NCBI RefSeq assembly: GCF_003334305.1
Contig: NZ_QOWS01000032.1
Length of the DNA stretch: 35,919 nucleotides
Strand: one strand, 5' to 3'
Source: Escherichia coli
GTDB taxonomy: Bacteria > Pseudomonadota > Gammaproteobacteria > Enterobacterales > Enterobacteriaceae
The number at the start of each line of letters is the position of its first letter. Position 1 is the stretch's first letter. Below the pieces are notes generated by a model. That model searched no databases. It was not told where the DNA came from and saw only the letters and a program-made list of their open reading frames with translations. Position numbers and translations under genes: made by a program. Positions 35,435 to 35,919 of this stretch are shown in pieces.

Positions 35435-35573
35435 AGAAGATGGTGCATCCGGGAGGATTACTCACTGGCGTTCGCCCTTCGGGCCGTTGCTGACGCAACG
35501 TTATCCTCCCTGGTGCCTGCGGTTAATACCGCTATCTCTTCGATACCTTCATTGCTGAAGGTTACGGAGAATA
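35435..35573 (-). repeat. tRNA-Arg array spacer module 1, containing a 19-nt copy of the tRNA-Arg 3' end (35441..35459)
   Basis: tggtgcatccgggaggatt repeats the 3' terminal 19 nt of tRNA-Arg (minus-strand sense) and then diverges into spacer sequence. The module is a near-copy of 35707..35848. Confidence 0.6.
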
Positions 35574-35650
35574 TGGTGCATCCGGGAGGATTCGAACCTC
35601 CGACCGCTCGGTTCGTAGCCGAGTACTCTATCCAGCTGAGCTACGGATGC
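35574..35650 (-). tRNA. argQ: tRNA-Arg (anticodon ACG)
   Basis: Reverse complement is GCATCCGTAGCTCAGCTGGATAGAGTACTCGGCTACGAACCGAGCGGTCGGAGGTTCGAATCCTCCCGGATGCACCA: 7-bp acceptor stem, anticodon loop CTACGAA (ACG), T-loop GGTTCGAATCC, encoded CCA. Confidence 0.9.
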
Positions 35651-35706
35651 ATCGGGAAAATTTATTTTACTGCTGATATTGATATCGCTACTAAAGCCAT
35701 ATCAAG

Positions 35707-35848
35707 TAAGAGATGGTGCATCCGGGAGGATTACTCGCCTTGCGGCTCGCCCTTCGGGCCGTTGCTAAAGCAACGTTATCATCCCTGGTGCCTGCGGTTA
35801 ATTCCGCTACCTCTTCGATACCTTCATTGCTGAAGATTTCGGAGAATA
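35707..35848 (-). repeat. tRNA-Arg array spacer module 2, containing a 19-nt copy of the tRNA-Arg 3' end (35714..35732)
   Basis: Near-identical to module 1, with scattered substitutions (for example ctcactggcgttcg versus ctcgccttgcggctcg, gctgacgcaacg versus gctaaagcaacg). Confidence 0.6.
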
Positions 35849-35919
35849 TGGTGCATCCGGGAGGATTCGAACCTCCGACCGCTCGGTTCGTAGCCGAGTA
35901 CTCTATCCAGCTGAGCTAC
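35849..35919 (-). tRNA. argZ: tRNA-Arg (ACG), second copy, truncated by the window edge (5' 6 nt missing)
   Basis: Identical to the first copy over the 71 nt present (tggtgcatccgggaggattcgaacctccgaccgctcggttcgtagccgagtactctatccagctgagctac). Confidence 0.85.

Follow-up and report, generated by a model that had tools for sequence, protein, structure and literature searches.

RtT-like modules with copies of the tRNA 3′ end in the tRNA-Arg(ACG) operon of Escherichia coli

The tRNA-Arg(ACG) operon of Escherichia coli is among the most heavily transcribed loci of the cell. The stretch of DNA analysed here (the window; 35,919 nucleotides from contig NZ_QOWS01000032.1 of assembly GCF_003334305.1) has its 3′ edge inside this operon, serV-argVYZQ, which lies on the minus strand, and the sequences that follow its tRNA genes contain exact copies of the last 19 nt of the tRNA. 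Are these copies remnants of the duplications by which the array grew, as a preliminary description of the locus had proposed, or parts of an element with a structure of its own?

Layout of the tRNA-Arg array

E. coli chromosomes match the locus at 100%, and yqaB and four tRNA-Arg genes are annotated there. In a genome identical across the 1,020 nt queried, the full array reads serV-argV-(module)-argY-63 nt-argZ-(module)-argQ-(module)-yqaB, a module being present after three of the four tRNA-Arg(ACG) genes, with argY as the exception. ARAGORN and Rfam recognise a complete tRNA-Arg(ACG) at 35574–35650 and a second copy at 35849–35919 (both minus strand), the latter cut by the window end; the second of the at least two tRNA-Arg genes described before is thus present, although only one is complete in the window. 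The features are as follows, in the order of transcription:

35849–35919, minus strand: argZ, tRNA-Arg(ACG), 5′ end lost at the window edge (Rfam tRNA model, 50.5 bits, 5′-truncated)
35714–35848, minus strand: M2, RtT-like module of 135 nt directly 3′ of argZ (Rfam RtT RF00391, our covariance model R1, fold)
35792–35848, minus strand: variable 5′ domain of M2, two hairpins
35714–35791, minus strand: conserved 3′ domain of M2
35714–35732, minus strand: 19-nt copy of the tRNA-Arg 3′ end in M2, AAUCCUCCCGGAUGCACCA in the RNA (exact match)
35651–35713, minus strand: spacer or leader of 63 nt from the M2 copy to argQ (sequence comparison, array maps)
35574–35650, minus strand: argQ, tRNA-Arg(ACG), complete, 77 nt, CCA encoded (ARAGORN; Rfam tRNA model, 67.1 bits; RefSeq annotation of the identical genome)
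35441–35573, minus strand: M1, RtT-like module of 133 nt, the 3′ trailer of argQ, which is the last tRNA of the operon (Rfam RtT, R1, fold)
35441–35516, minus strand: conserved 3′ domain of M1, 76 nt
35503–35516, minus strand: 5′ strand of helix P1 of M1, GCACCAGGGAGGAU (minimum-free-energy fold)
35441–35459, minus strand: 19-nt copy of the tRNA-Arg 3′ end closing M1 (exact match and fold)
35320–35334, minus strand: terminator-like hairpin and T-run between M1 and the yqaB start (consensus scan only; weak)
34727–35293, minus strand: yqaB coding sequence, the downstream neighbour (RefSeq annotation of the identical genome, offset 32,399)

In the genome identical over the queried 1,020 nt, argZ is a complete tRNA-Arg; its last 19 nt correspond to 35849–35867 of the window, and those of argQ to 35574–35592.

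On the plus strand, TGGTGCATCCGGGAGGATT occurs four times with no mismatch, starting at 35441, 35574, 35714, and 35849, and none would be expected by chance (100 shuffles). Two of these occurrences lie inside the tRNA-Arg(ACG) genes and two are extra (35441–35459 and 35714–35732), which bears out the array of tRNA-Arg genes with 19-nt tRNA-end copies. Alignment of the modules to each other and to the tRNA, which had been suggested as a check, also supported it, the 19-nt matches being exact in both modules and the units 96% identical. Because the genes are on the minus strand, the string formerly quoted as the last 19 nt of the tRNA is the reverse complement of its 3′ end, AATCCTCCCGGATGCACCA.

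The two units form a direct repeat of 173 nt (96% identity, period 275) in which, along transcription, a tRNA is followed by 114–116 nt, the 19-mer copy, 63 nt, and the next tRNA. The modules begin at the base right after the CCA of argZ and argQ, on the same strand and within the tRNA operon. The spacer length of about 140 nt given in the preliminary description is the distance between successive 19-mers (133, 140, and 135), the tRNA-to-tRNA spacer being 198 nt, and the copy, which was said to stand at the spacer's end, closes a module of 133–135 nt instead, with 63 nt remaining before the next tRNA. In the module-less argY-argZ spacer, the same 62–64 nt sequence directly follows the genuine tRNA 3′ end. 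The earlier view that the array is not a CRISPR is upheld, because the repeats are tRNA genes and what lies between them is likewise repeated, with 96% identity; short identical repeats with unique spacers were not found in the array.

Several other assignments were considered and rejected. The modules contain only spurious open reading frames of 20–41 aa and one of 138 aa running antisense through the tRNA, with no tpr-like peptide gene among them. By the ARAGORN and Rfam results, they are neither tRNA nor tmRNA, and the Rfam matches to Plastid-ycf2 and HPnc0260 are artefacts that come from the strand opposite to the tRNA.

Fold of the modules and kinship with RtT

Folding of the spacer transcript had been proposed as a means of detecting tRNA-like structure, and a 13-bp tRNA-like helix with an ACCA overhang is indeed predicted. 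The minimum free energies are −56.3 kcal/mol for M1 (z = −5.8) and −52.0 kcal/mol for M2 (z = −4.3). In the M1 fold, RNA positions 116–129 pair with 58–71, and positions 130–133 (ACCA) are unpaired. In the predicted structure of the 76-nt 3′ domain, this 13-bp helix (P1), of which the 19-mer provides the 3′ strand, closes three hairpins (CGUUGC/GCAACG, GCCC-GAA-GGGC, and one that is variable). The 5′ strand of P1 in M1 resembles the acceptor 5′ strand of tRNA-Arg fused to its T-stem 5′ strand, and in this model the domain looks like the acceptor/T-arm half of tRNA-Arg with the T-loop replaced by an insert. P1 is imperfect in some copies: M2 has a U-C mismatch (GGGAUGAU), and the K-12 module after argQ has GGAAGGAU. 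The terminal CCA is not strictly kept, as CCC or CCT stands in its place in some copies from Klebsiella and Hafnia.

Comparison with other genera is in agreement with this fold. RNAalifold recovers P1–P4, and the 13 pairs of P1 are 94.8% paired across 28 sequences, with four pairs changed on both sides. Over all helices, 96–97% of cells are paired and 6–7 pairs are changed on both sides, compared with 0–3 in slid controls and 3.0–3.2 in shuffles (0 of 500 reach the observed value), a control that kin sequences can exceed without any structure. Pairing is kept by compensatory changes across 12 genera, following each species' own tRNA-Arg sequence; in Hafnia, Pantoea, and Pragia, for example, the tRNA-Arg 3′ strands are altered, the module copies share the changes, and the partner strand compensates for them. 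Identity between genera is 46% in the 5′ domain, 90% in the copy, and 81% in the rest of the 3′ domain, or 76% once the retrieval columns are dropped, which partly controls for the inflation caused by retrieving loci with a pattern inside the conserved core.

The element that these features point to is RtT, the repeat of the E. coli tyrT operon that gives rise to the small RNA RttR. Both modules give full-length matches to Rfam RF00391, M2 at 35714–35841 (31.0 bits, E = 0.0015) and M1 at 35441–35566 (22.7 bits, or 29.9 bits and E = 0.00041 when searched alone), the E-values coming from small searches and the curated gathering score being 45 bits. At that gathering threshold, RtT has no match in the whole window or in the K-12, Klebsiella, and Hafnia arg arrays, and standard annotation misses M1 and M2 because their scores lie below it. 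Our own covariance model, R1, scores M2 at 103.4 bits and M1 at 94.7 bits. In alignment to the RF00391 consensus, the core is near-identical (AACGUUGC...GCAACGGCCCGAAGGGCGA...GAGUAAUCC), and its hairpins, CGUUGC-loop-GCAACG followed by GCCCGAAGGGCGA, are invariant or nearly so in 28 arg modules. M1 and M2 also lie just 3′ of a tRNA, on the same strand and within the operon, as RtT does, and their 3′ ends copy the end of the upstream tRNA, CCA included, with exact 19-mers; the same holds for the Tyr, Lys, and Pro classes. The long-range helix between the tRNA-derived 3′ strand and an upstream strand is likewise present (P1 94.8–96.8% paired, 3–4 pairs changed on both sides), and AAUCCuuC is likewise paired with the 5′ region in the consensus structure of Rfam. 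Judged by sequence, the arg modules are an unannotated member of the known RtT/rttR family, a membership given by sub-threshold but significant matches together with our own alignment, in which the 5′ part of the RtT model is absent. The papers covered by a full-text literature search contain no mention of RtT-like elements in the arg operon; the arg repeats may already have been described by Bosl and Kersten (1991), Fournier and Ozeki (1985), or Komine et al. (1990).

The tyrT locus has the same architecture, ending in the 3′ end of tRNA-Tyr, and the annotated K-12 small RNA rttR starts 8 nt past the CCA of tyrV and ends exactly at the CCA of the tRNA-Tyr 3′-end copy. This is a precedent for the earlier suggestion that the copies could act as tRNA-like 3′ ends or processing sites, and by analogy we infer a processed module RNA that would end in CCA, as annotated for RttR. 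RNAs of the RtT family have been described as being released from tRNA operon transcripts (PMC4986893).

The same core was found beyond the arg operon in a scan of a genome collection (at least 120 loci, a sample of the host range and not a census). Among the matches listed, it follows tRNA-Tyr, Arg, Lys, and Pro genes, nearly always with a 17–22 nt exact copy of the tRNA end behind it, and tRNA-Ser genes too; it also follows 5S rRNA, and there the terminal copy is of the 5S 3′ end. These matches represent at least six different host RNAs, in Enterobacterales and in other gammaproteobacterial genera such as Gilliamella, Photobacterium, and Marinobacterium, and tandem amplification is common in the array maps. 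About 25 of the matches listed, in unrelated phyla, had no tRNA nearby and were rejected as chance matches. In long forms, the core sits between a copy of the tRNA up to ...GGTTCGA and another from ATCC... onward, and in Yersinia and Serratia the 3′ half of the tRNA contributes as many as 23 additional nt. The flanking repeat of the other classes ranges from 19 to about 70 nt and can include a terminator; a fixed-length target-site duplication was rejected on this account. Long-form modules in other species sit downstream of intrinsic terminator hairpins, where a role as RNA is less obvious and spread at the DNA level more plausible. Apparent mobile carriers were also dismissed: whole-genome Salmonella contigs had been filed as phage and chromosomes as plasmids, another contig was unverified and of low coverage, and a 14-kb circle was an excised csrA-arg-yqaB-gshA piece of chromosome beside ISKpn18.

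Proposed processing, recombination, and rival readings

Taken together, these data are probably best explained if the modules after argV, argZ, and argQ are divergent short-form relatives of RtT, in which the 19-mer is a functional, paired 3′ part and which are processed by the enzymes of tRNA maturation. The 19-nt tRNA end and the upstream strand GCACCAGGGAGGAU would form the 13-bp helix that closes the three hairpins and leaves ACCA free. The internal module is presumably co-transcribed with the tRNAs, because a scan for promoter-like sites found no internal promoter between them. Since a module shares its CCA determinant and its trailer with a genuine tRNA, the tRNA-processing enzymes may excise and trim it; in the standard model, RNase E would cut just past the CCA and 3′ exonucleases would act as well, perhaps together with RNase P at the base of the helix. 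Cleavage 1–3 nt past each encoded CCA is part of the RNase E/RNase P/exonuclease model (PMC2190699). Processing would yield a discrete RNA with a CCA end, analogous to the annotated RttR, with a predicted length of about 76–133 nt and an end of ...GGAUGCACCA. Such an RNA could be an inert, well-folded processing by-product or insulator, or a mimic of the tRNA end acting in trans.

A broader reading, which we hold only tentatively and consider rather unlikely, is that RtT-type modules in general are mimics, each matched to the end of the stable RNA that it follows (tRNA-Arg, Tyr, Lys, Pro, Ser, or 5S), whose complementary strand is selected and which act in trans, or else are spread between stable-RNA operons by recombination at those ends. 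If mimicry were at work, a small folded RNA would offer a terminus like that of a tRNA (or of 5S) while lacking the remainder of such a molecule, and might sense or decoy the factors that read tRNA 3′ ends, among them exonucleases, the CCA-adding enzyme, RNase P, or toxins directed at 3′ ends; the stringent-response machinery, suggested for RttR, would be another possible target. The arg short form of E. coli, a 13-bp minihelix with an ACCA overhang, would then be the most tRNA-like version.

Conserved folded modules make up about 400 nt of the arg operon precursor and are absent from standard annotation. Kinship with RtT would account for the 19-nt tRNA-end copies and tie the arg, lys, tyr, and pro operons and some rRNA operons together by one element. 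If the RNAs are stable and active, they would be tRNA-end mimics of an abundant kind, with a dosage that rises and falls with tRNA transcription, which would bear on the role of RttR. If they are inert, the modules would still matter for variation in tRNA gene copy number (2–4 copies among E. coli strains) and for the assembly and annotation of a repeat-rich locus.

The K-12 arrangement is kept at at least 80% in 3,491 of 5,426 complete E. coli genomes. Among the genomes listed, variants lack 134 nt (one module less, still four tRNA-Arg genes) or 275 nt (one unit of tRNA, module, and spacer less, three tRNA-Arg genes), and some have only two tRNA-Arg genes. Within E. coli as well as between species, a filled spacer differs from an empty one by precisely one module, with the 19–20 nt repeat as its boundary. 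These precise gains and losses of modules and tRNA units are consistent with recombination between repeats; the tRNA genes, modules, and 19-mers may all be substrates for homologous recombination that changes the copy number of tRNA-Arg. The earlier proposal that the array grew by unequal recombination therefore holds in so far as repeats reshape it, but not in treating the 19-mers as mere by-products of duplication, for they are a base-paired, integral part of a conserved RtT-related element that also occurs after single tRNAs and 5S rRNA in many genera, with the 3′ end of that host.

Neutral debris, that is, partial tRNA 3′ ends left in the spacers by unequal crossing-over or slippage and lacking a role of their own, would agree with the precise unit losses and gains in E. 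coli and with the exact difference, at the 19–20 nt repeat, between module-bearing and module-less spacers. It is nevertheless very unlikely, because the paired strand co-varies with species-specific changes of tRNA-Arg, whereas debris would keep no complementary strand; moreover, the core is common to modules after tRNA-Tyr, Lys, and Pro genes and 5S rRNA, and the 3′ domain is 76–81% identical between genera while the adjacent 5′ domain reaches only 46%. Still less credible is the idea that the modules are tRNA-Arg pseudogenes, with gene conversion from neighbouring copies maintaining the identity of their 3′ ends. The 3′ domain, of 76 nt, forms a four-way junction and starts with GCA..CC.G GGAGG like the acceptor and T-stem 5′ strands, and the additional tRNA sequence in the Yersinia and Serratia long forms would also fit; however, ARAGORN, which finds just two tRNAs in the window, and the Rfam tRNA model miss the modules even at E ≤ 10, and P2 and P3 are near-identical in modules on unrelated tRNAs and 5S rRNA and are therefore not decayed D and anticodon arms of tRNA-Arg. 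The least probable reading, and one we scarcely credit, makes the modules terminators or attenuators of a highly transcribed tRNA operon. The tyrT repeats are described as overlapping a region of Rho-dependent termination, the long forms of other species hold intrinsic terminator hairpins inside each repeat, and M1 stands at the operon end, but M2 and the module after argV precede further tRNA genes that need transcription, and no T-run follows the module hairpins. The minus-strand scan found no intrinsic terminator in the modules; its sole terminator-like site, at 35320–35334, lies outside them and is, on weak evidence, a candidate for the end of the tRNA operon transcript. The plus-strand site of the same scan, at 35519–35532, is inside M1 and antisense to the operon.

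A further reading, unlikely though not negligible, treats the module as selfish DNA: a small element, non-autonomous and either mobile or recombining, would enter stable-RNA genes at their 3′ ends and duplicate the target end, any RNA from it being incidental; the proposed route of entry is Campbell-type, integrase-like, or at the T-loop. Tyrosine integrases are known to act at the T-loops and 3′ ends of tRNAs. In every case the core lies between direct repeats of the host 3′ end, with precise presence and absence; the same core occurs at six or more host RNAs across gammaproteobacterial genera among the matches listed; tandem amplification is common; and in the long forms the core sits as if inserted in the T-loop, with a flanking repeat of up to about 70 nt. 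On the other hand, no integrase, transposase, or credible open reading frame lies in or beside the modules, which measure 133–178 nt, the repeat varies in length from 19 to about 70 nt, which a target-site duplication of fixed size would not do, and the phage and plasmid matches are misfiled chromosomal pieces and not genuine carriage. In addition, that changes in P1 and P4 compensate each other speaks for selection acting on a single strand in its folded form, and the arg short form looks vertically inherited, at the same locus in 12 genera.

Comparison with known systems

Integrases that target tRNA genes leave direct repeats, attL and attR, at tRNA 3′ ends. As in that case, direct repeats from the T-loop onward bound a segment with precise presence and absence; the arg "insert", however, is 114 nt without a gene, is conserved at the same site across genera, and folds with the repeat itself. 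Neither an integrase nor cargo was found between the direct repeats, and the 114 nt hold no credible open reading frame.

The sponge RNA 3′ETS-leuZ is a segment freed from a tRNA precursor during maturation, as may by analogy apply to the arg modules, which differ in forming a family of structured repeats, each matched to the end of its host tRNA. We know of no Hfq binding or target pairing for the arg modules, and 3′ETS-leuZ is not, to our knowledge, a host-matched family. It is listed among the E. coli small RNAs (PMC12306157).

The predicted fold can also be compared with the tRNA acceptor/T-arm minihelix, in that a 13-bp helix combines acceptor-like with T-stem-like strands and carries ACCA as a 3′ overhang, and the first three pairs of P1 (G-C, C-G, A-U) are the same as in tRNA-Arg. 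Minihelices of this kind are established substrates of RNase P, the CCA-adding enzyme, and 3′ exonucleases. In the arg module, by contrast, the T-loop is replaced by an insert of about 44 nt with three hairpins and there are two single-base bulges, the likeness being structural only.

The modules of the E. coli lysT-valT-lysW... operon, which bear no separate name, are the best non-arg matches to R1 (67–77 bits); they have the same short form and an almost identical GGAUAACGUUGCGUCAGCAACGGCCCGAAGGGCGA, but end in the 3′ end of tRNA-Lys (AUCCUGCACGACCCACCA) with the partner strand GUGAAGGAU. They reach the Rfam threshold, but only through odd spans of 167 nt that take in a tRNA.

Compared with RtT/rttR itself, the arg modules score only 23–31 bits, against 133–137 bits for the tyrT copies and a gathering score of 45. 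The 5′ strand of their closing helix stands immediately before hairpin P2, whereas that of RtT lies about 45 nt upstream; they lack the ...GGUUCGA hairpin region in between, and the helix takes in the whole acceptor 3′ strand, leaving only ACCA free. They are also placed between tRNA genes, whereas RtT is mainly a distal tandem array, and their copy derives from tRNA-Arg and not tRNA-Tyr. What the two have in common is a position adjoining the 3′ side of a tRNA gene on the same strand, where the element may be iterated, the core AACGUUGC-loop-GCAACG-GCCCGAAGGGCGA, a copy of about 19 nt of the upstream tRNA 3′ end including the CCA, and a long-range helix formed on that copy.

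Organization of the tRNA-Arg array and its spacers

The interval 34900-35919 matches many E. coli chromosomes at 100% identity, and the minus-strand order in an annotated matching genome is csrA, tRNA-Ser, four tRNA-Arg, yqaB, yqaA, and gshA. The locus is the K-12 serV-argV-argY-argZ-argQ operon. The relevant features, together with other RNA genes in the window, are as follows.

Features in the window
35574-35650, minus strand: tRNA-Arg(ACG), complete (ARAGORN and Rfam)
35849-35919, minus strand: tRNA-Arg(ACG), second copy, truncated where the window stops (ARAGORN and Rfam)
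35441-35516 and 35714-35791, minus strand: 76-nt 3′ domains of the two spacer modules
32592-32663, plus strand: MicA sRNA (Rfam gathering threshold, 83.9 bits)
25917-25994, plus strand: naRNA4/CssrE (Rfam gathering threshold, 65.2 bits)
3546-3621, minus strand: tRNA, anticodon CAT (Rfam gathering threshold)

The 19-mer TGGTGCATCCGGGAGGATT, the reverse complement of the last 19 nt of tRNA-Arg (two T-loop bases, T-stem 3′ strand, acceptor 3′ strand, discriminator A, and CCA), is present in four mismatch-free copies, at 35441, 35574, 35714, and 35849, where none is expected by chance, which bears out the preliminary description that the spacers carry copies of the tRNA end. The two units make up a 173-nt direct repeat with 96% identity and a period of 275. 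Along transcription, each unit is comprised of the tRNA (77 nt), 114-116 nt, the 19-nt copy, and 63 nt before the next tRNA; the spacer length of about 140 nt given earlier is the interval between consecutive 19-mers, and the tRNA-to-tRNA spacer measures 198 nt. Rfam matches to Plastid-ycf2 5′UTR (33.4 bits) and HPnc0260 at 35576-35650 and 35851-35919 (plus strand) lie antisense to the tRNA-Arg genes and were rejected as artefacts of tRNA-like palindromy. A terminator-like hairpin at 35320-35334 (minus strand; ACGCTAAAGTAGCGT then CATATTTTTC), 107 nt past the last module and 27 nt ahead of the yqaB start codon, may be the end of the tRNA operon.

Relationship to RtT and the host-end copy

In a permissive Rfam scan, RtT (RF00391) was the one family besides tRNA with full-length matches, at 35714-35841 (31.0 bits, E = 0.0015) and 35441-35566 (22.7 bits; 29.9 bits, E = 0.00041 when searched alone), both under the gathering score of 45. 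The alignment is near-identical across AACGUUGC-loop-GCAACGGCCCGAAGGGCGA and GAGUAAUCC. The K-12 tyrT locus consists of tyrT, a module, 33 nt, tyrV, and three tandem modules, all of which terminate in AATCCTTCCCCCACCACCA, the tRNA-Tyr 3′ end, and score 133-137 bits in Rfam. The arg spacers therefore hold divergent RtT relatives with a terminal copy from tRNA-Arg. At the gathering threshold, RtT is absent from the arg spacers of the window, K-12, Klebsiella, and Hafnia, and this explains why RefSeq records contain no feature there. A covariance model built from the arg-module 3′ domain (R1) had exactly two matches, of 103.4 and 94.7 bits, across the 35.9-kb window; the short lysT-operon modules came next as a class (67-77 bits), and tyrT repeats scored about 30 bits.

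The core GCAACGNCCCGAAGGGNGA was searched in one genome per species and each match paired with the nearest upstream tRNA, this pattern-based retrieval yielding a sample of at least 120 loci. Among the matches listed, the core lies 47-125 nt past tRNA-Tyr(GTA), Arg(ACG), Arg(CCG), Lys(TTT), Pro(TGG/CGG), or Ser genes in Enterobacterales, Gilliamella, Zophobihabitans, Photobacterium, Marinobacterium, and Amphritea, and an exact 17-22 nt copy of the 3′ end of that same tRNA almost always occurs within about 70 nt after the core. Core matches in unrelated phyla had no tRNA nearby and were dismissed as chance. The Tyr, Pro, Lys-long, Arg(CCG), and Yersinia/Serratia Arg-long forms score above the Rfam threshold, and the short arg and 5S-linked forms below it.

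Several RtT-like cores, one of them in E. coli, occur directly past 5S rRNA, where the terminal AACTGCCAGGCATCAAAT... corresponds to the 5S 3′ end plus trailer and can pair with an upstream GGCAGUU. Their R1 scores are 24-32 bits, and RtT at the gathering threshold gave no match in L014 or L047. In the E. coli contig, an rrn-type terminator hairpin comes next after the 5S-end copy.

5S-linked RtT-like elements (retrieved loci)
L014:100-230, L030, L047/L048, and L093: 5S-linked elements
L033:7794-7917, minus strand: E. coli element (Rfam 27.9 bits, below threshold)

Long forms were observed after tRNA-Pro, tRNA-Lys, and the last tRNA-Arg of Yersinia/Serratia (L024, L017, L039, L051, L084, L066). 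Their repeated segment totals up to about 70 nt and also covers the trailer of the tRNA plus an intrinsic terminator hairpin, so a terminator comes with every repeat and precedes the module body. At L084:2034-2195 and L066:1962-2109 (both minus strand), an exact tRNA 3′-half copy to the T-loop (e.g., GAACCGAGCGGTCGGAAGTTCGA) is followed by a core of about 60 nt and ATCTTCC...CCA; the core looks as though it had entered a partial tRNA copy between T-loop positions 58 and 59.

Predicted fold and covariation

Folding of the modules, also proposed in the preliminary description, gave -56.3 kcal/mol (z = -5.8) for the module after argQ (M1) and -52.0 kcal/mol (z = -4.3) for that after argZ (M2), far better than shuffled controls, with a predicted acceptor/T-arm-like helix. 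In this predicted closing helix (P1), the 19-mer as 3′ strand pairs with GCACCAGGGAGGAU through the segments GCA/UGC, CC/GG, and GGGAGGAU/AUCCUCCC, interrupted by two single-base bulges; P1 encloses P2 (CGUUGC/GCAACG), P3 (GCCC-GAA-GGGC), and a variable P4, and leaves ACCA unpaired. The P1 5′ strand is similar to the tRNA-Arg acceptor 5′ strand (GCAUCCG) fused without a gap to that of the T-stem (GGAGG), so the modelled fold of the 76-nt domain resembles the acceptor/T-arm half of tRNA-Arg with P2-P4 in place of the T-loop. P3 occurs at 35474-35484 and 35747-35757 (minus strand), and its loop is GAA, GCA, or GUA among copies. Its C-GAA-G centre resembles the unusually stable GCGAAGC-type mini-hairpin, which occurs in single-stranded DNA as well.

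RNAalifold recovered P1-P4 from an alignment of 28 arg modules from 12 genera, in which 96-97% of cells are paired by pair counting. Pairs changed on both sides numbered 6-7, versus 3.0-3.2 in shuffles (0/500 with as many) and 0-3 in slid controls. Where the tRNA-Arg 3′ strand is altered, as in Hafnia (CUUCC), Pantoea (CCU), and Pragia (CUCUC), the same changes appear in the module copies, and the upstream P1 strand is altered to match. The partner strand also fits the host class, being GGGGAAGGAU for Tyr, (A)GAGGAU for Pro, and GUGAAGGAU for Lys. Identity between genera is 46% in the 5′ domain, 81% in the non-copy 3′ domain (76% minus retrieval columns), and 90% in the copy.

Origin, proposed processing and comparison with known elements

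Modules are present or absent with precision. K-12 and the window strain have them after argV, argZ, and argQ, and in both argY is followed by just 62-63 nt; the module behind argV is missing from another E. coli, Klebsiella oxytoca has one after 4/4 tRNA-Arg genes, and Enterobacter cloacae after the third and fourth (the exact search core only at the third). The 62-64 nt behind a bare tRNA is the sequence found behind the 19-mer in filled spacers, so the module amounts to 133 nt framed by direct repeats of 19-20 nt. The K-12 arrangement is at least 80% intact in 3,491 of 5,426 complete E. coli genomes; among those listed, the array has 2 to 4 tRNA-Arg(ACG) copies and the csrA-yqaB interval is shorter by 134 nt (4 tRNA-Arg), 275 nt (3), or about 416 nt (2). 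A circular 14.3-kb entry classed as a plasmid (K. pneumoniae pVA681-14, NZ_CP093469.1) contains chromosomal csrA, the tRNA-Arg array, yqaB, yqaA, and gshA adjoining an ISKpn18 transposase, and is apparently a piece of chromosome that was excised or mis-assembled.

Such precise indels are consistent with recombination, homologous or slipped, that involves tRNA genes, modules, and 19-mers, and to this extent the earlier proposal that the array grew by unequal recombination duplicating tRNA ends holds; but module conservation and compensatory changes contradict the view that the spacers are neutral debris of that growth. Descent from a decayed tRNA gene is unlikely, as the arg modules have P2 and P3 in common with those of unrelated hosts. 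Direct repeats of the host end, the many hosts, tandem amplification, and the long-form core lying between tRNA positions ...GGTTCGA and ATCC..., with a flanking repeat that can include a terminator, would suit a selfish or mobile DNA element, yet this origin is improbable given that no recombinase or cargo was found, the repeat length is variable, a search for phage or plasmid carriage found none, and the arg-form position is vertically conserved. A terminator role is excluded for internal modules.

For the RtT relatives in the arg spacers, homology to RtT, fold and covariation, host tracking, and precise indels are established. No promoter-like sites were found in 35200-35919, so M2 must belong to a precursor also yielding argQ, with which it would be co-transcribed. 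In standard tRNA maturation, RNase E cuts 1-3 nt past each encoded CCA, RNase P makes 5′ ends, and exonucleases trim 3′ ends, according to PMC2190699. As the acceptor-like helix, ACCA, and following trailer are all repeated in the module, it is expected to be handled like a tRNA by these enzymes. The expected RNAs would be about 125-133 nt, ending in ...GGAUGCACCA, and RNase P cleavage at the base of P1 might add a 76-nt species with the same end. The K-12 rttR annotation, whose 5′ end is 8 nt past the tyrV CCA and whose 3′ end is the CCA of the copy, supports tRNA-like processing by analogy.

The RtT family and its tRNA-end copy in tyrT are already known, the 178-bp tyrT repeat, which starts 19 bp before the tRNA end, reportedly having been described by Egan and Landy in 1978. 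Covariation support for the family structure is also known (PMC8250186), and RtT has been proposed to influence the amino-acid starvation response, as cited in PMC4986893 and PMC7542023. What is added here, part of which may already be in print, is that the arg spacers are short-form family members missed by annotation, that the short form has a predicted minihelix-like fold, that copy and partner strand co-vary with the host tRNA, and that 5S-linked relatives exist.
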